DNA of 37,645 nucleotides, taken from a virus. The DNA is taken from the UHGV virus genome UHGV-0334473; one strand, 5' to 3'. How positions within the stretch are numbered: the first letter of the stretch is position 1; every line of letters starts with the position of its first letter. Positions 3,230 to 36,293 of the stretch are shown piece after piece. The position numbers and the translations under genes are program-made. Below the pieces are notes generated by a model that did no database searches, was not told the DNA's origin, and was given only the letters and a program-made list of their open reading frames with translations.

Positions 3230-4637
3230 TGAATTTATTCCTTTTGCTGATATTGGTGCTGCCATTGATTATTACTATGATAAACCAGTAGCTTTTTGCC
3301 AAGATATTTTGCATTTGAATCCTGATGAATGGCAAGAAAATGTTTTAAATGATTTAGCTGAATTTTCAAAGGTTTCTGTTCGTTCTGGTCAAGGAGTTGG
3401 AAAAACAGCATTAGAAGCAGGAGCAATACTTTGGTTCTTAACGTGTCGACCCTACGCTAAAGTAATAGCAACAGCTCCGACAATGAAGCAACTTTACGAT
3501 GTACTTTGGGCAGAGGTAGCTAAATGGTTAAATGATAGCTTGATCAAAAACTTACTGAAGTGGACAAAGACTAAAATTTATATGGTTGGTGATTCAGAAC
3601 GTTGGTTTGCTACGGCTAGAACAGCGACTAAACCAGAAAATATGCAAGGTTTTCACGAGGACCATATGTTGATTGTGGTAGATGAAGCTTCTGGTGTGTC
3701 TGATCCAATTATGGAAGCTATTCTTGGTACGCTATCAGGTTTTGATAATAAGCTGTTGATGTGTGGAAACCCCAATAATATTGAAGGTGTCTTTTATGAT
3801 TCCCATAATTCAGACCGTGATAAATACAGAGTTCATAAAGTATCAAGCTATGATAGTAAACGTACAAACAAAGACAATATAGAAATGATTCTTAAAAAAT
3901 ATGGAAAAGAAAGTGATGTTGCTCGTGTCCGTATTTTTGGAGAATTTCCGAAAGGTGCGTTGGATTCATTTATCAGTCTTGAAACAGTTGAATTGGCTAC
4001 AGAAAAACAAATTAGTGATTCTTTAGTCAATAAAACAAAGGTTGCTCATATTGGTGTCGACGTAGCTCGATATGGTGATGATTCTACGATTCTCTTTCCT
4101 AGAATTGCTACCAGGGCATTGGAGTATGAGAAGTATTCAAAACGTAGCACCATGGAAACAACAGGATATGTCATCAACATGGCCAAGAATCTAATGAGTC
4201 AATATCCGAGTATTGATAAAGTGATGATTAAAGTCGATGACACTGGTGTCGGAGGTGGTGTAACCGACCGCCTAGAAGAACTTATAGAAGACAAACATTA
4301 TCCTTTTGAGGTGTTTGGAGTGAATAACGGTTCAACATCAGAAGACGATTTTTACGATAATTTAGGTACTCAACTATGGGGAAACATCAAGGAAATGTTA
4401 GAAGAAAATATGACAGCAAATCTTAACGGAGAACAGCCAATTATTGAATTGCCTGATGATGGATCGTTGATTAAAGAACTGAGTACACGTAAATTCAAAA
4501 TGACGAGTAGAAGTCGTATTCGTTTAGAAAGTAAAGATGATATGAAAAAGCGAAACATTGGTAGTCCAGATATTGCTGACGCGTTGGCTTTAGCATTTTA
4601 TGAGCCACCAAGTCACTATCAATTTATTCAATTTTAG
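3222..4637 (+). CDS. terL: terminase large subunit
   Basis: 471 aa; Walker A-like GQGVGKT; acidic ATPase/nuclease motifs; position after terS. Confidence 0.9.
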   Translation: MNNEFIPFADIGAAIDYYYDKPVAFCQDILHLNPDEWQENVLNDLAEFSKVSVRSGQGVGKTALEAGAILWFLTCRPYAKVIATAPTMKQLYDVLWAEVAKWLNDSLIKNLLKWTKTKIYMVGDSERWFATARTATKPENMQGFHEDHMLIVVDEASGVSDPIMEAILGTLSGFDNKLLMCGNPNNIEGVFYDSHNSDRDKYRVHKVSSYDSKRTNKDNIEMILKKYGKESDVARVRIFGEFPKGALDSFISLETVELATEKQISDSLVNKTKVAHIGVDVARYGDDSTILFPRIATRALEYEKYSKRSTMETTGYVINMAKNLMSQYPSIDKVMIKVDDTGVGGGVTDRLEELIEDKHYPFEVFGVNNGSTSEDDFYDNLGTQLWGNIKEMLEENMTANLNGEQPIIELPDDGSLIKELSTRKFKMTSRSRIRLESKDDMKKRNIGSPDIADALALAFYEPPSHYQFIQF

Positions 4638-4648
4638 GAGGTGTGCTT

Positions 4649-6178
4649 TTGATTAGTACAGTATTATCTTTAGAGAGATATAAGAAGCTACGTGTTAAAT
4701 ATGCAACCCAAATTGAAGATGGAATGTTTGATCCGAATGGTTTTATAGAAGATATGAAACCATTTTTTGCTGATCGTGAAAGAAAATATCTAGCATATAC
4801 TAGCGAAAAGAATGAAATAGACAAAAGACCAAAGCCTAACACTGATATTGTAAAGGTTAATAATAAACTTCATGCTGGTATGTATTCTATTGTCGTAGAC
4901 CAAGCAGTCAATCATTTTACTGGTATACCTATCAAATGGGATTACGATGTATCGGAACAAAAAAGAACACTCATTCAAAGATTAAAAGATAAATTCTTAA
5001 AAAATGATATAGAACTTCCGACAGTTCCAGAAGCTTTTAACAAATTAACAAGCAATCTTGATTCCATGAGATTCGCAATGCTTGATTCTGAAACTGCAAC
5101 TTTTCAAGGAGCTTGTGGAGTAGCTTTCCGATTGTTAGAGCCTGTGGAAGAAGATGATGGTTGGAAGTTAAGAGCAAGTAATATTGAACCTTGGAGAGCA
5201 GAAAGATATGGAAATGCCGGAATCTATATCAAAGAAAAGTATGACTCTTACCAGAAAAAATTTTTTCAAGAAATGAAAGTTATGACAAGAAATAAAATTC
5301 TGACATATGCTTGCTATGGTGATTTGAATTTTGTTACAAGCGGAACGTTCAAAAAAATTGATGAGACCGATAACCCTTTGGGGACGATTACCTTGGCAGA
5401 ATTTAAAAATAATACGAATCGTTATTGTGATTTTGAAGTAGCTGAGGAAATTGGAGATGCAATTGATCGTGCTTTGTCTGATCAACAAAACGAAATCGAA
5501 CAATTTAAGCTTGCGTACATGCTTGTTACTGGCACAACAATGAGCAAAGGCACTGCTAAAGAAATGATGAATCAGCTAGGGATTATCAACTTAAAAGACC
5601 CTACTGCAAAAGCTGAATATGTCACAAAAAATTTAGCAAAAGATTTCAATGAATATCATATGGATCTATTGAAAAAACAGTTTTACACCATTTGTAAAGC
5701 AATCGATTTTAACGATGAGGTGTTTAAATCAAACAGTTCTGGAGAAGCTCGCAAGTGGCAAATCATTAGCCTAGAAGCGAAAACAAATACTAAAGAGCAA
5801 TATTTTAGAGAAGGATTGAAAGAATGCGCAGAAACAATTGCTGCTTTTCTTAAGTTTCATGACAAAGTAGAAATTGAGCCTGAAAAAATTATTTTTACTT
5901 TCTCTAGATCTTTGCCAACTGATTTAAGTTATTTAGCTGAAGCTTTACCTAAACTTGCACCATACGTATCCAAACGAACTATTCAGAGCCAAATTCCATT
6001 TGTAACAGATGTTGATTATGAAAATGAAATGATGGAATTGGAAAGTGGAAGTGCTTATCCAGATAGTGAATACAATTTTGGCGGAGGTGGCAATAGTGAC
6101 GATAGAAACGAAGTATTGGACCAAACGTCGAGAACTGGAGGATCAAGCAAGGCTCAAACAAGAAAATCAGACACTTAA
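4649..6178 (+). CDS. portal protein (SPP1 gp6-like)
   Basis: About 510 aa ORF directly after terL; TTG at 4649 is 7 nt after AGGAGG (track start 4643 is GTG abutting the SD). Confidence 0.8.
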   Translation: MISTVLSLERYKKLRVKYATQIEDGMFDPNGFIEDMKPFFADRERKYLAYTSEKNEIDKRPKPNTDIVKVNNKLHAGMYSIVVDQAVNHFTGIPIKWDYDVSEQKRTLIQRLKDKFLKNDIELPTVPEAFNKLTSNLDSMRFAMLDSETATFQGACGVAFRLLEPVEEDDGWKLRASNIEPWRAERYGNAGIYIKEKYDSYQKKFFQEMKVMTRNKILTYACYGDLNFVTSGTFKKIDETDNPLGTITLAEFKNNTNRYCDFEVAEEIGDAIDRALSDQQNEIEQFKLAYMLVTGTTMSKGTAKEMMNQLGIINLKDPTAKAEYVTKNLAKDFNEYHMDLLKKQFYTICKAIDFNDEVFKSNSSGEARKWQIISLEAKTNTKEQYFREGLKECAETIAAFLKFHDKVEIEPEKIIFTFSRSLPTDLSYLAEALPKLAPYVSKRTIQSQIPFVTDVDYENEMMELESGSAYPDSEYNFGGGGNSDDRNEVLDQTSRTGGSSKAQTRKSDT

Positions 6179-21932: not shown

Positions 21933-22948
21933 AAAAGAAAATTACTATTACTGCGGTGAGCCTATTAACGGCTCTTTTTTTATTGCCAATTAACGGATTT
22001 GCCTATACTATCAACAATGAATTTAATTTGGGCCCAAACGAAGGTAGCTCACAAGTAGCAAATAATCAGTACATTTTACTGCATGAAACAGCTAATGAAA
22101 CAGCAACAGGACGCAATGAAGCGCAGTATATGCAACGTTCATGGACTAGTGCTTACACTGCTTACATTGTGGGTGATGGCGGAATTGTTTACCAAGTTGG
22201 ACAACCTGGTTATGTACAGTATGGTGCTGGTTCATATGCTAATGCCAACAGTCCTGTGCAAATCGAGTTACAACACACACATAATAAAGCAACTTTTGAA
22301 AAGAACTATAAAGCATATGTTGAATTGGCAAGAGATTCAGCAATGAAATATGGTATTCCATTAACATTGGACACTCCTTATAACCAACCAGGAATCAAAT
22401 CACATTTATGGGTAACGCAAAATATCTGGGGAGATCATACAGATCCTTACGGTTATCTTTCTGAAATGGGCGTAAGTAAAGAAAAATTAGCATATGATTT
22501 AGCTCATGGATTTACCGATGAAAATCCGACAACTTCAGATGATAAACCAGTCATTGATCCAACACGAGCTGGTGCAGCAAATCCTACGCTGACAGATGGA
22601 ACGAATCATTCTCATATTGATCAGTTTGGGGAAATAGAAAATGCAAACTTGCACGTCGCTGGCTGGCACATCGCTAACTATAAATACGAGTACATTTTTA
22701 TCATGGACTATAATACTGGGAAAGAATTAGCTAGAGTAAAAGCTGATGGAATTTATAGACCGGATGTAAATCAAGCGTATGGGACATCTGGAAATGTTGG
22801 CTATCATGTATCTTTTAACATGCGTAACTTCCCTAATAAGAAAGTCTATGTCATGATGCGGGCAACGAATGATCCAGAGGGAAACACTAAAGGCGGTGCG
22901 CAAGATTTCCATGACAAACGTTGGTATTTAAATATTCCTAAACGATAA
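21929..22948 (+). CDS. endolysin: N-acetylmuramoyl-L-alanine amidase (Amidase_2-like) with N-terminal signal peptide and C-terminal wall-binding domain
   Basis: MKKKITITAVSLLTALFLLPINGFA signal-like N-terminus; ILLHETAN...QIELQH amidase motifs. Confidence 0.75.
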   Translation: MKKKITITAVSLLTALFLLPINGFAYTINNEFNLGPNEGSSQVANNQYILLHETANETATGRNEAQYMQRSWTSAYTAYIVGDGGIVYQVGQPGYVQYGAGSYANANSPVQIELQHTHNKATFEKNYKAYVELARDSAMKYGIPLTLDTPYNQPGIKSHLWVTQNIWGDHTDPYGYLSEMGVSKEKLAYDLAHGFTDENPTTSDDKPVIDPTRAGAANPTLTDGTNHSHIDQFGEIENANLHVAGWHIANYKYEYIFIMDYNTGKELARVKADGIYRPDVNQAYGTSGNVGYHVSFNMRNFPNKKVYVMMRATNDPEGNTKGGAQDFHDKRWYLNIPKR

Positions 22949-22953
22949 AAATA

Positions 22954-22976
22954 GCTCCTCGTTGAGGAGCATTACA
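22954..22976 (+). terminator. weak terminator hairpin after endolysin (GCTCCTC-gtt-GAGGAGC)
   Basis: 7-bp GC stem, poor T-tract. Confidence 0.35.
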
Positions 22977-22984
22977 TAACTATA

Positions 22985-23014
22985 TTGACAACTATAAAAA
23001 TCATTCGATAAAAT
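22985..23014 (+). promoter_or_regulatory. sigma-A-like promoter (TTGACA-18-TAAAAT) upstream of tRNA leader
   Basis: Consensus -35 and good -10. Confidence 0.45.
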
Positions 23015-23136
23015 AGTGATGTTATCGCATATCTTCACTATCACCCATAATAGTCACACTCCAAGCTATGCGATAACAGGTTTGTTGCCACACATTCTAC
23101 TGGTTGATTGTTTATGGCTTTATGTGGCAACAACCA

Positions 23137-23210
23137 GTACCCTTAGCTCAGTTGGTCAGAGCAGACGGCTCATAACCGTCCGGTCGTAGGTTCGAGTCCT
23201 ACAGGGTACA
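23137..23210 (+). tRNA. tRNA with CAT anticodon (elongator tRNA-Met or lysidine-type tRNA-Ile2), 74 nt, no encoded CCA
   Basis: Manual cloverleaf: 7-bp acceptor GTACCCT/AGGGTAC, D arm GCTC/GAGC, anticodon stem GACGG/CCGTC with loop CTCATAA, T arm GTAGG-TTCGAGT-CCTAC; G1-C72 paired so not initiator. Confidence 0.8.
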
Positions 23211-23247
23211 TAATTTAATCTATTTGATAAAAAATAAAATTCAATAA

Positions 23248-23256
23248 TGGTATAAT
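23248..23256 (+). promoter_or_regulatory. extended -10 promoter (TGGTATAAT) for toxin mRNA (RNA I-like)
   Basis: Perfect TGnTATAAT about 50 nt upstream of the toxin SD. Confidence 0.5.
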
Positions 23257-23308
23257 AAAATGTCGGCTCGTCGCTTCCACAGAGATTTTCGTGGGAGGAG
23301 GTGTATGA

Positions 23309-23398
23309 TTTGTTTGAATTCACTTTGGAGCACGTGCTCTTGCCATTGTTAATTGGTTTAACTTTGGCATTATTTAGTCATTGGCTAGATAAACATTA
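23309..23398 (+). CDS. Fst/Ldr-like type I toxin peptide (29 aa: MFEFTLEHVLLPLLIGLTLALFSHWLDKH)
   Basis: TTG 8 nt after GGAGG; single TM helix plus charged tail; ALFSHWL resembles Fst-family motif; followed by intrinsic terminator. Confidence 0.55.
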
Positions 23399-23410
23399 GA
23401 GCCGACAATG

Positions 23411-23446
23411 GCGCTTACTGTTTCGCAGCGGTAAGCGTCTTTTTTT
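23411..23446 (+). terminator. intrinsic terminator of toxin mRNA (GCGCTTAC...GTAAGCGT + T7)
   Basis: 8-bp stem and T7 run. Confidence 0.65.
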
Positions 23447-23487
23447 GAAAAAGAAAAAAACACAACGTATTCGCAGGTACGTTGTGT
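23447..23487 (-). terminator. minus-strand intrinsic terminator (ACACAACGT-loop-ACGTTGTGT + U-run) serving antisense RNA and integrase
   Basis: Perfect 9-bp stem followed on the minus strand by TTTTTTTCTTTTTC. Confidence 0.6.
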
Positions 23488-23519
23488 TTATGGTGTATAT
23501 TTGTTTAAATTCACTTTCA
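23450..23519 (-). ncRNA. candidate RNA II-like antitoxin sRNA (about 65-70 nt) complementary to the toxin start region
   Basis: Minus-strand TTGACA-16-TATAAT promoter at 23526-23553; contains repeat 23499-23517 matching 23307-23325 (18/19) over the toxin start codon; ends at minus-strand terminator. Confidence 0.45.
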
Positions 23520-23573
23520 ATTATTATTATACTTGTTAAATAAATTGTGTCAATATAAAAGATATTTTTATAC

Positions 23574-23619
23574 GTGTACTAACCTATATTATCCTTCCGG
23601 AATATATAAGTTAGTACAC
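23574..23619. other. candidate attP of the serine integrase (46-bp imperfect palindrome, 19/23 symmetric positions, asymmetric centre TC)
   Basis: GTGTACTAACCTATATTATCCTTCCGGAATATATAAGTTAGTACAC lies 5 bp from the integrase stop codon. Confidence 0.5.
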
Positions 23620-23624
23620 ATAAA

Positions 23625-24977
23625 TTATATAAGGAAATTTACTGTTATATTGCCATCTGGAAATACTATTATGTTATCGATAATTGAACGCCATAATGCA
23701 TTTTTTTCTTCTTCCGAAGATTCTTTATAAATTTCATCGAATTCTTTTGATAGAATAAATTCGACATTTTTTATATCTATTTTAGCTGGCTCTACTTCAA
23801 TTTCATTTAATTCTTTCATTAAAGCTTCTCGATCTTTTTTGTATTCCTCTAAGTCTATAACTTCATTCAAGTAGGCTTTCTTCAATCTATCTAATTTATT
23901 CTCAATATTTTTCTTAATATTTTTCTTTTTAATAATCTTTGGTTGTTTTTTTGAATAGTTTATTTGTATTTGTTCAAATTTTTGTTTAGTAGCTTCAAAA
24001 ATATAACGTTCTAAATTTTTTTCGTAAAAAGCGCGCTTATTTGTGCAACGTAATTTATTATTTCTTCGTTTTACACATCTATAACAAGTCCTTTCGTATA
24101 TAGATTCTGTACCGTCTTTTTTCTTATATCTTGCTTTAATAGTTTGACCAGCTACTGATCCCTGACAGTCAGAACATTTTAATAAACCTTTAAAAATGTA
24201 ATCACGTTTTGCATTTGTTTTTAAATTTTTAGGTAAGGCTTTTTGAACAGCATAAAAAAGTTTTTTATCAATAATAGGAGGACAGTAATTTTTATTATTT
24301 CTTAATTCACCAATGTATTTTTTGTTCGTCAACATATTTTTAACACTTTGATAATCTCTAACGATTCCATACTGAGAGCCTAAATAATAAACAGTTTTTC
24401 TTAAACTACCACTAGAAAGAAAGTAGTTGAATATATCTATCACGATAGGAGCATCATCATTTATTACTAATTTCTTATTTTCTATAGAGTAGCCTAACGG
24501 AGTTTTCCCGCTTACTACTTCACCTTGTGCAATTTTATTTGCCATAACAGCTTTGATGCGTTCTGAATCAATTTGGGCTTCCAATTCAGCAAAACTCATT
24601 ACTTGTGCAATGAAAGTTCTGCCATACGCTGTAGTTGTATCATAATATTGTTGAGAAACAGCATTCCAAGAAACATTGTGTTTTTCTAAAATTTCTTGAG
24701 TGTTTAAATAATGTCGTAGATTTCTAAACCATCTATCTAATTTTGTAAATAAAATTAGATCTATTTTATTTTCTTTTACATCTTGTAATAGTTTTTGAAA
24801 TTCATCACGATTTATTTTTTGACCAGAAATACCACCGTCTACATATTCATTAACTACTTTCAAATCCTTGTGTTGTTCGATATATTCATAGAGGGTTTCT
24901 TTTTGTTCTCTAAGACTATCTCCATGTTTGGCTTGTTGTTCAGTTGATACTCTCATATATAATGCTACTCGTTTCAT
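23625..24977 (-). CDS. int: large serine recombinase (integrase)
   Basis: N-terminal resolvase catalytic motif YMRVSTEQQ; 450 aa with Cys-rich recombinase/zinc-ribbon region and C-terminal coiled coil; RBS AAGGAGA. Confidence 0.85.
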   Translation of the reverse strand: MKRVALYMRVSTEQQAKHGDSLREQKETLYEYIEQHKDLKVVNEYVDGGISGQKINRDEFQKLLQDVKENKIDLILFTKLDRWFRNLRHYLNTQEILEKHNVSWNAVSQQYYDTTTAYGRTFIAQVMSFAELEAQIDSERIKAVMANKIAQGEVVSGKTPLGYSIENKKLVINDDAPIVIDIFNYFLSSGSLRKTVYYLGSQYGIVRDYQSVKNMLTNKKYIGELRNNKNYCPPIIDKKLFYAVQKALPKNLKTNAKRDYIFKGLLKCSDCQGSVAGQTIKARYKKKDGTESIYERTCYRCVKRRNNKLRCTNKRAFYEKNLERYIFEATKQKFEQIQINYSKKQPKIIKKKNIKKNIENKLDRLKKAYLNEVIDLEEYKKDREALMKELNEIEVEPAKIDIKNVEFILSKEFDEIYKESSEEEKNALWRSIIDNIIVFPDGNITVNFLI

Positions 24978-25009
24978 GTTATCTCCTTTCGAATGTATGT
25001 TCTTATCGT

Positions 25010-25034
25010 TGTAAAAGAAAAGCCCGAAGGCTAA
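25010..25034 (-). terminator. weak minus-strand terminator after DUF4041 gene (AGCC-ttcg-GGCT + T-rich)
   Basis: Short stem with tetraloop followed by TTTTCTTTT on the minus strand. Confidence 0.35.
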
Positions 25035-25042
25035 TCTTTTTA

Positions 25043-26332
25043 CTACACATCTGTTAATTCTAATGATCTTCTGTATTGTTCAGCTTGAGCTAGTTTAGTA
25101 AAAGATACAGTTCCGTTATAATTTTCTAAAACAACTTTTTCAATTTCATCAAGAGATACTTTAAAGAATTCTTTTCGTTGATTAACTTTATTGACTTCGT
25201 TTTTTCTAAAATGCGAATGTAGTTGATTTTCTAATGTTGGTGCATCTTCTGAAAATATCATTGCATGAACATCAAATTCAAAAGGTACAGAAGCGCTACT
25301 AAGTTCCTTAATTCTATCCATAGGTTCTAACCGTCTAGTCATTCCTATTTTATAGACATCTTCACCGAAAGATCCGATATTACTGATGACATAAACATAG
25401 CCAGCTCTAGTATTAAGTTCTCTTTGCAATACATCTTCTTTGACAGTTTCTAGTTCTCTTAATTTCTCTTCCAGTTCTTTAATTTTATCAGCATAGAGTT
25501 CTTTTTCAACATCAGCACTAGCTTTTTGCATGTATGCCATTAACTTAGTTATCTCTGAGTTAAACTGTCGTTCTTCTTTATCAATGCGTTTCTTTTCACG
25601 TTCTATTTCACGTCTTACCTTTTCTTCTTCAATCATTTGTTCTTTTATTGCTTTTTGCTGTTCTTTTTCATCGTTAACTTTAACTATGTATGAATAGTTG
25701 AGTTCTAATTCTTGAAGTTTTAATTCAAGTAATTCTTTTTTGAATTCTGCTTCATCGTTTTTAAAAAGCTTGTTTATTTTATCAAAAGTTCTTATAATTT
25801 TTTCTCTAGTTGAATCTACGTTAGAAATAGTAAGTTTATTGAGAAGTCCAGTTATTTCTGATTCTAATGGTATAAGCATTTTCTTTTTAATATTATTAGC
25901 TTCTCTATTATTCAAATAAGAAGGAATATTAATTGCACCGTCTAAAATAAAATCCTTTTCTTTAATCTTTAATAAAGAAAGTTTGTTTTTTATTTCGGAT
26001 GAAGAAGTTTCATCTATATTCGGAATAATTACTGATTTATAGATAGTGACCAGAGATGTGTCATATTTTTGATTAATTTCATCGTCTAACCGCTGGCTTT
26101 CAGCATTAAGAATATCAATTTTGTTTTCTAGCGTTGACAAGTTTTTATTCAATTTACTTATGTTTTTCTCTTTTTCAGATATAAACGTTTCCCTAGCATT
26201 TAATTCTTGAGAATATTCCTTTACCTTACTCTCTAAGGCAGAAGTTTTATCTTTTAATTTTTTAGCTTCAGATAATTTGCTACTACCCATAATTATTAAA
26301 ACTATTCCAACTAAAAACAATAGTACTCCCAT
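25043..26332 (-). CDS. membrane-anchored coiled-coil protein with C-terminal T5orf172 (GIY-YIG-like) domain, DUF4041-type architecture; moron between int and repressor
   Basis: N-terminal TM helix, about 280 aa of heptad-rich sequence, C-terminal AGYVYVISN...YKIGMTRRLEPMDRIKELSSASVPFEFDVH...LHSHF...KEFFKV matching T5orf172 consensus. Confidence 0.65.
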   Translation of the reverse strand: MGVLLFLVGIVLIIMGSSKLSEAKKLKDKTSALESKVKEYSQELNARETFISEKEKNISKLNKNLSTLENKIDILNAESQRLDDEINQKYDTSLVTIYKSVIIPNIDETSSSEIKNKLSLLKIKEKDFILDGAINIPSYLNNREANNIKKKMLIPLESEITGLLNKLTISNVDSTREKIIRTFDKINKLFKNDEAEFKKELLELKLQELELNYSYIVKVNDEKEQQKAIKEQMIEEEKVRREIEREKKRIDKEERQFNSEITKLMAYMQKASADVEKELYADKIKELEEKLRELETVKEDVLQRELNTRAGYVYVISNIGSFGEDVYKIGMTRRLEPMDRIKELSSASVPFEFDVHAMIFSEDAPTLENQLHSHFRKNEVNKVNQRKEFFKVSLDEIEKVVLENYNGTVSFTKLAQAEQYRRSLELTDV

Positions 26333-35986: not shown

Positions 35987-36293
35987 TCAACCATCTCCTA
36001 TACGCTTTATTATCAATAGATAATATCATTTTTCGTAATAAAGATAAAAAAATAAGTAAGGCTTCTCATTAAAATATAAAAAAGACAGCCGACCACTGGC
36101 TGTCCTTAGCAGAATATTGAAATAGTGAGCCATCTGTTTTCCGCCAGATAGCTCAACATGTATATGGGTAACGAGTGCAACCTCGCTACTTGAAAAGCTT
36201 AGCATAAGCATGGGTATAAAAAAAGCCGGATTCCTCCGACCTTAATTAATAATTCTGACACAATTATTATATCATAAATGGAGGAATCAATGG

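Follow-up and report, generated by a model that had tools for sequence, protein, structure and literature searches.

The closest described parallels to the locus considered here are phage integration systems of the large serine recombinase type. The integrase of the Listeria phage A118, known as the LI integrase, uses a pseudo-palindromic attP of about 50 bp, organised around a central dinucleotide and adjoining the integrase gene itself, and its target lies inside a non-essential host gene, comK. The TP901-1 integrase likewise belongs to the large serine recombinases; the Lactococcus phage that encodes it is a temperate siphovirus infecting lactic acid bacteria. According to the model put forward for LI, half-sites of attB have their distal zinc-ribbon motif about 5 bp nearer the centre than those of attP (PMC3783163). 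Among phages of Enterococcus faecalis, phiFL1A-C, phiFL2 and phiFL3 (Phifelvirus) encode a gp01 annotated as a serine recombinase.

The bacterial gene radC, for its part, is a documented target of the transposons Tn554, Tn6674 and Tn6260 (PMC7371108; bioRxiv 10.64898/2026.03.26.714560), and an EFC-1-like prophage has been described in radC of E. faecalis (2026 preprint). EFC-1 was considered as a member of the lineage studied here and rejected: its integrase is only 32% identical and represents a different lineage.

Here we examine a 46-bp imperfect palindrome in a stretch of viral DNA of 37,645 nucleotides (referred to in its entirety as the window), which an original prediction, made from the letters alone, had proposed as a phage attachment site. 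The palindrome is very probably the attP of the adjacent large serine recombinase, with radC of Enterococcus faecium as the host target. Literature searches – the original phiFL paper lying outside their coverage – found no published description of this integrase/attP/attB set.

The palindrome and the adjoining integrase gene

At 23574–23619 the window reads GTGTACTAACCTATATTATCCTTCCGGAATATATAAGTTAGTACAC, exactly the letters first quoted. Complementary bases stand at 18 of the 23 pairs, or at 18/22 arm positions around a TC centre; the mismatched pairs are 11/36, 17/30, 18/29 and 22/25, together with the centre pair 23/24, which is the TC itself. The count of 19/23 symmetric positions given originally is therefore one too high, whereas the TC centre holds. 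In a scan of the whole window for dyads with 22-nt arms and a 2-nt centre, the palindrome was the top imperfect dyad across the 37.6 kb, with a score of 18 against 15 for the runner-up, and 200 mononucleotide shuffles of the window gave 17 at most, so that the palindrome is real rather than a product of chance. It can be divided into a P arm distal to the integrase gene (23574–23595), the central TC (23596–23597) and a P' arm proximal to it (23598–23619); the functional attP may extend 2–3 bp beyond the palindrome on either side.

The integrase ORF occupies 23625–24977 on the minus strand and encodes 450 aa. Its stop codon (23625–23627) leaves a gap of 5 bp to the palindrome, as had been claimed, and the Pfam domains of the product – Resolvase (PF00239, E 1e-31), Recombinase (PF07508) and Zn_ribbon_recom (PF13408) – identify it as a large serine recombinase, again in agreement with the original reading. 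It is the presumed enzyme of the site.

Phage context of the site

The window holds an Enterococcus-type temperate phage genome, whose nearest phage records are Enterococcus phages. Its gene order begins with the small and large terminase and portal genes and runs on to the tail, holin and lysin genes (to 22948), after which come a tRNA-Met at 23137–23210, a small toxin-like ORF and the palindrome. Past the palindrome, a minus-strand block comprises the integrase gene (int), a defence-like gene and a CI-type repressor gene, and it is followed by rightward early genes and, last, a late activator. Both ends of the window are thus occupied by phage genes (terminase and portal at one, the late activator at the other), and neither radC nor any other host flank is present; it follows that the window is a permuted phage genome in which the junction from lysin to int is closed. 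This, with the palindrome intact, bears out the proposal that the window shows the phage in its attP configuration.

Several neighbouring features deserve mention in their own right. The tRNA-Met (CAT, plus strand) lies just past the lysin gene, and the identity of the window to other Enterococcus and Listeria phage records stops right after it, marking a mosaic module boundary; contigs L002 and L004 have 22972–24802 and beyond in common with the window, yet their lysis genes differ. Upstream of the tRNA, two nested inverted repeats (GTTATCGCATA...TATGCGATAAC and GTTGCCACA...TGTGGCAAC) occupy 23020–23135. The segment adjoining attP, 23226–23555, is a candidate type I toxin–antitoxin locus, whose small ORF encodes ...FEFTLEHVLLPLLIGLTLALFSHWLDKH, has its own Shine–Dalgarno sequence, shows a weak, sub-threshold Fst_toxin match (E 0.0014) and shares the locus with a plus-strand terminator (23410–23439). 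Converging on this ORF from the minus strand are a perfect (12/12) sigma-70 promoter, running from 23553 to 23526, and a terminator at 23489–23458, a pair that could give rise to a short antisense RNA.

Between int and the CI-type repressor gene, the minus-strand gene at 25043–26332 encodes a 429-aa product matching PADLOC PD-Lambda-1 (E 1e-114) and, in Pfam, T5orf172/MUG113 and DUF4041, the latter called SNIPE in more recent releases. The gene, carried by the prophage, probably serves in defence against phages. Further on, in the early/late boundary region, the minus strand at 36073–36191 matches the Rfam family Ref1C (Enterococcus sRNA 1C) with 93.7 bits against a gathering score of 90.

When the att/int region and the larger part of the window were compared with 50,697 phage records, nothing close to the int/attP module turned up; the matches were limited to the lysin/tRNA segment and to the phiFL integrases, which are distant. 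Parts of the module recur in other contigs: in L002/L029 (IMGVR_UViG_3300002882_000001) and in L014, the attP region and the 3' part of int are more than 99% identical to the window before a switch to other sequence inside int, at about window position 24802 in L002 and 23810 in L014, which points to recombination breakpoints inside the integrase gene.

Integrated copies in E. faecium

Contigs retrieved by an exact lookup of the integrase protein came in two configurations, one with the palindrome intact (L004) and the other with it joined to host DNA (L003, L005); the intact palindrome was also found, by DNA pattern, in L002 and L014. The host-joined configuration is represented by four independent E. 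faecium contigs (L003, L005, L007 and L008), of which L007 and L008 are prophage contigs of isolate genomes in IMG/VR. Their integrases are identical to that of the window in L003 and L005, match it over the whole protein in L007 (100% in the best segment) and are 99% identical in L008. All four contigs match the window down to 23588 – from the early region onwards in L003 and L005 – and then continue into radC, a HAD hydrolase gene, folC and valS.

Read in the orientation of int, the attL junction of L003 and L005 is ...TTTAT GTGTACTAACTTATATATTCCGGAAGGAT joined to GATTATGCGCTAAAACG..., the host part being antisense radC. On the plus strand, L003, L005 and L007 show host GCGCATAATCATCCTTC followed by CGGAATATATAAGTTAGTACAC, that is, the host left arm, ATCCTTC, C and then GGAATATA..., so the P' arm is kept with int. 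The corresponding chimeric RadC ORFs, with ...HNHPSGIYKLVHINY at their ends, occur in many E. faecium records (P0125, P0126, P0272, P0277, P0278 and P0280), the P0125 chimera being present on 15 contigs.

The empty site was found with a RadC fragment search, which led to intact radC (230 aa; P0121, P0122) in five phage-free contigs, L009–L013, with the gene order valS-folC-HAD-radC-cspA-rnj. In the sense of radC, which is also the plus strand of the window, attB is ...TTTTAGCGCATAATC ATCCTTC TGGTAATGTTATTCCATCGCAG..., and the sequence around radC codon Ser180 is ...GATCGTTTTAGCGCATAATCATCCTTCTGGTAATGTTATTCCATCGCAG...; aligned as ...GCGCATAATC ATCCTTC TGGTAATGTTATTCC, the empty site of these contigs is identical to attP in a 7-bp core and in scattered bases. 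A host attB sharing the central dinucleotide of the palindrome, as the original prediction anticipated, is thus found in the empty radC of L009–L013, where TC lies within ATCCTTC.

The reciprocal junction was reached by a different route. Pattern scans of viral contigs – with the P arm and its flank, the radC 3' arm and the attP-side terminator as queries – returned attP copies or nothing, one metagenome scan yielded another attP copy (L014) instead of attR, and an exact lookup of the window lysin, aimed at attR, returned no record. Joining the window up to 23597 with radC after the core, however, predicts an open frame, MLNKLCQYKRYFYTCTNLYYPSGNVIPSQQD..., and a protein search with this chimera matched P0241 (72 aa, 97%, E. 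faecium) and P0243 (100% over 54 aa); a chimeric ORF predicted from the attP model before the search was therefore found almost exactly. Two E. faecium contigs provide the DNA: L023 (GCA_003335695.1) corresponds to window positions 23194–23600 and L024 (GCA_002260765.1) to 23007–23600, both at 99.5–99.7% identity, after which come the 3' end of radC and cspA. Their junction is ...ATACGTGTACTAACCTATATTATCCTTC joined to TGGTAATGTTATTCCATCGC..., or phage GTGTACTAACCTATATTATCCTTC followed by host TGGTAATGTTATTCC: the phage left arm, ATCCTTC, T and then GGTAATG... Here it is the P arm that is kept, together with the prophage end carrying the lysin, tRNA and toxin genes.

The four attL and two attR contigs, which stem from different genomes, are exact B+P' and P+B' hybrids in which no bases have been lost or gained. 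As judged from these assembled contigs, the integrated product is shown to have the order radC 5' – attL – int ... phage ... lysin – tRNA-Met – toxin-like ORF – attR – radC 3'. The central claim of the original prediction, that the palindrome is attP, and its expectation of attL and attR hybrids are both borne out, in that the identity of the lysogens to the window stops inside the palindrome and passes into radC in L003, L005, L007 and L008, with the reciprocal junction in L023 and L024. Nor do the junctions fall elsewhere, for instance at 23020–23135: this inverted-repeat region is collinear inside the L024 prophage.

One contig departs from this pattern. In L006 (E. faecium CP104083.1, contig positions 5290–5410), an integrase of 434 aa is identical to that of the window up to 23665, beyond which the 3' end of int is diverged, frameshifted and, near codon 206, fused to radC. 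Traced back from that codon, radC is unbroken through an intact attB over about 80 nt, and the junction is not at the palindrome. The exact 434-aa integrase is found on a single contig, against many canonical junctions. The arrangement resembles the outcome of a secondary event in which host DNA took the place of the P' arm, radC-anchored recombination with an illegitimate second join being one example; alternatively, it could reflect illegitimate insertion of a circular phage. Extended homology between the right flanks of phage and host was rejected as a cause, given a local alignment score of 11 against a shuffle mean of 10.3.

The point of exchange

On the plus strand, attP is GTGTACTAACCTATATT-ATCCTTC-C-GGAATATATAAGTTAGTACAC and attB is TTTTAGCGCATAATC-ATCCTTC-T-GGTAATGTTATTCC. 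When the window, L009–L013, the four attL contigs and L023/L024 are aligned, the sole block common to all four kinds of site is ATCCTTC, at 23591–23597. Immediately to its right, at 23598, the phage has C where the host has T, and the difference segregates: attL carries C in L003, L005 and L007, attR carries T in L023 and L024, so that the base is on the expected side in 3/4 attL and 2/2 attR sites. Since the phage base goes to attL and the host base to attR, the exchange lies no further right than 23597 and, by this comparison, is shown to occur inside the 7-bp core. The exception is L008, with its 99% identical integrase, which has T at the equivalent of 23598; this would require T at that position in the attP of its phage, a plausible allele given that L041, a related contig, and phiFL1A both have it.

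Within the core, the likely place of cleavage is the TC at 23596–23597, a choice made on grounds of symmetry. The 46-bp dyad has its exact centre on this dinucleotide, the last two bases of the core; CC/GG at -3/-4 and +3/+4 flank it symmetrically in attP as well as attB, a pattern expected of a serine integrase whose 2-nt staggered cut falls at the centre; and, as polarity requires, it is non-palindromic. The original proposal of TC as the central dinucleotide fits these observations, the segregation of 23598 being compatible with a cut at TC or further left in the core. Among relatives whose host has AGT or AGC as its codon for this serine, moreover, AG replaces TC at the same junction position, which fits a crossover at the central dinucleotide; the attP of the 62% relatives, sought as a test for an AG centre, did not appear among the copies found, all of which were attL.

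A staggered cut at another dinucleotide of an otherwise correctly identified attP – CT or TT at 23594–23596, for example – would agree with junction sequences that fix the exchange only to ATCCTTC, and some serine integrase sites do cross over away from their apparent dyad centre. Set against the position of TC at the exact dyad centre, its lack of palindromic symmetry, the CC..GG bases symmetric about it in both sites and the AG junctions of the relatives, such a cut seems unlikely.

Related integrases and half-site motifs

Integrases that are 60–68% identical to that of the window are found at the same radC codons (HNHPSG) in L001, L030, L033, L034 and L038–L040; L001, from Enterococcus sp. 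BWR-S5, was the sole relative (60%) to emerge from the genome-collection scan. In L041, whose integrase is 68% identical, and in phiFL1A, an analogous site lies directly past the int stop codon. Aligned from the central dinucleotide, the integrase-proximal arms follow the consensus xGGaAa.TAT.AGTTAg, which is kept at integrase identities of 60–99%. On the other side, the peptide C(T/A)NL(Y/C)Y, whose equivalent in the DNA is TGTACTAACCTATATTAT, is preserved in attR-type chimeric ORFs of E. hirae and E. durans.

The half-sites of phage and host can also be compared with each other. The B' arm of attB contains GTTATTCC at +8..+15 and both P arms contain GTTAGTAC at +13..+20; at the 5-bp inward shift in attB, the motif matches at 6/8 positions in the B' arm and at 3/8 in the B arm.

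Other phage-side arms occur at the same radC codon in the attR-type chimeras P0245, P0248 and P0251 (from E. faecium, E. hirae and E. mundtii), with junctions such as MKCWLIKFKLTEIEHIHFH joined to PSGNV and ...KVYLSLS joined to SGNV, which suggests that further phage lineages may use the radC site. In P0283, on a 2.6-Mb E. faecium contig, a chimeric attL RadC contains a tandem duplication, ...HPSGIYKYPSGIYKLVHINY..., implying a 21-bp repeat across the junction; this could be real or an assembly artefact.

Alternative readings of the palindrome

A palindrome that begins 5 nt past the int stop might act chiefly at the RNA level, as a 3' stem-loop or as a terminator either of int or of a rightward late or toxin transcript, rather than as a recombination site. 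The predicted hairpin is indeed stable: on the int strand, a 19-bp stem with an inner 3-bp helix folds at -28.5 kcal/mol (z = -6.9), and the plus strand reaches -21.1 kcal/mol (z = -4.4). Yet no run of T/U follows the palindrome on either strand, so that, for all its predicted stability, it lacks the combination of stem-loop and T run that marks an intrinsic terminator; a terminator scan of 22800–25200 passed over it while calling canonical terminators nearby, at 23410–23439 (plus) and at 23489–23458 and 22970–22954 (both minus). The hairpin is, moreover, split in every lysogen. Arm symmetry varies among relatives, from 12/22 positions in L041, which nonetheless keeps the proximal arm, to 16/22 in phiFL1A, and conservation of arm sequence in the absence of conserved base pairing fits recognition by a protein better than an RNA hairpin. 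We therefore consider a primarily RNA-level function very improbable, although the hairpin could have a secondary role in the free form of the phage.

The attachment site could, in principle, also lie elsewhere between lysin and int, in the inverted repeats at 23020–23135 or at the 3' end of the tRNA-Met (23137–23210), with the palindrome merely incidental. That the identity of the window to other phage records stops right after the tRNA might be taken this way, the 3' ends of tRNA genes being classic attachment sites of tyrosine integrases; the enzyme here, however, is a serine recombinase, and the break is accounted for by module mosaicism, as L002 and L004 carry other lysis genes. More directly, L024 is collinear with the window over 23007–23600, so that the inverted repeats, the tRNA and the toxin locus are all intact inside a prophage, and the inverted repeats are for this reason not the att site; L023 is collinear over 23194–23600, where the tRNA is represented by its last bases only. 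An attP at either of these places is scarcely credible.

Proposed mechanism and effect on the host

By analogy with the known mechanism of the family, integrase dimers would bind the two near-symmetric arms of attP and, likewise, the less symmetric attB of about 40 bp inside host radC. The two sites would then come together in a synapse, in which cuts staggered by 2 nt at the central TC would sever all four strands, one pair of half-sites would rotate and the ends would be religated. Excision would presumably need a directionality factor.

In radC, the TC makes up bases 1 and 2 of the Ser180 codon in ...A-H-N-H-P-S-G-N-V-I-P-S-Q-Q-D..., within the HNHPSG metal-binding motif. On integration the gene is divided at Ser180, leaving a chimeric 5' ORF, ending ...HNHPSGIYKLVHINYIRKFT... 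Because the H-x-H of the metal-binding motif is parted from its S-x-x-D, radC is presumably inactivated, and RadC function would accordingly be lost on integration. Lysogeny by this phage family thus disrupts radC within its catalytic motif.

The mechanism is a known one and the site is ordinary for serine integrases, so that the result is useful rather than surprising. It provides a defined integrase/attP/attB triple for an E. faecium phage, with a 7-bp core and a specific candidate cut position, and such triples are the raw material for enterococcal integration vectors and for orthogonal serine-integrase tools.

Comparison with known systems

In its architecture and behaviour, the site matches the attP sites of large serine recombinases, and its original assignment to the TP901-1/A118 type is upheld at this level. 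The best match of the integrase to a solved structure is the catalytic domain of the TP901-1 integrase (3bvp; E 3.6e-17, residues 2–136); the likeness extends to the type of enzyme, as both are large serine recombinases, but the match is confined to the N-terminal domain, and the att sites and the target differ. With the A118 system, the window phage shares the pseudo-palindromic attP next to int, the central dinucleotide and a target inside a non-essential host gene, as well as a distal arm motif (TTTAGTATC for LI, GTTAGTAC at the present site). The placement of this motif some 5 bp nearer the centre in attB is seen only in the B' arm of the present site, the target gene is radC instead of comK, and the window phage is known from sequence alone. 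The LI integrase is not among the PDB sequence matches at E <= 0.001, which indicates that the DNA-binding domains are distant.

Nearer relatives are the phiFL phages, whose gp01 genes show about 71% nucleotide identity over 43% of a 23200–25100 query, inside the integrase gene. Directly past the int stop, phiFL1A has the site TTTGCACTAAGTCACATCATCCA TC TGGTTAATATTTATTAGTGCAAA, symmetric at 16/22 positions about a TC centre; its core, CATCC.TCTGG, resembles that of radC, and ACTAA/TTAGT forms an outer motif. The differences lie in the host species and in the sequences of the arms.

The Tn554 family, with its att554 in radC, targets the same short stretch of this gene, but it does so with unrelated TnpA/TnpB enzymes of the tyrosine recombinase type, at another cut position and without a palindromic attP. 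In L037 (E. faecium CP131000.1, about 4523–4700), a Tn554-like element carrying TnpA/B/C and a nucleotidyltransferase gene – its products include 361-aa and 630-aa proteins of the tyrosine recombinase type and a 125-aa protein – interrupts radC after GGTAATGTT, some 10 bp rightward of the phage crossover and within the B' arm that the phage uses. The RadC left by this insertion measures 187 aa (P0271) and is found on at least 677 contigs. The phage-side arms joined to radC at one and the same codon are of at least three different kinds.

We tentatively raise the idea, possible but on present evidence rather doubtful, that the roughly 25 bp of radC encoding HNHPSG(N/D)V form a convergent landing pad in enterococci, used by several serine-integrase phage lineages and, about 10 bp away, by the Tn554 family. 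If this were so, an element already in place would change or abolish the site of the other, and in E. faecium the carriage of resistance transposons and lysogeny by these phages would exclude each other or follow an order. That phages and Tn554-type resistance transposons have radC bases in common bears, in any case, on the competition of mobile elements for sites in a hospital pathogen.
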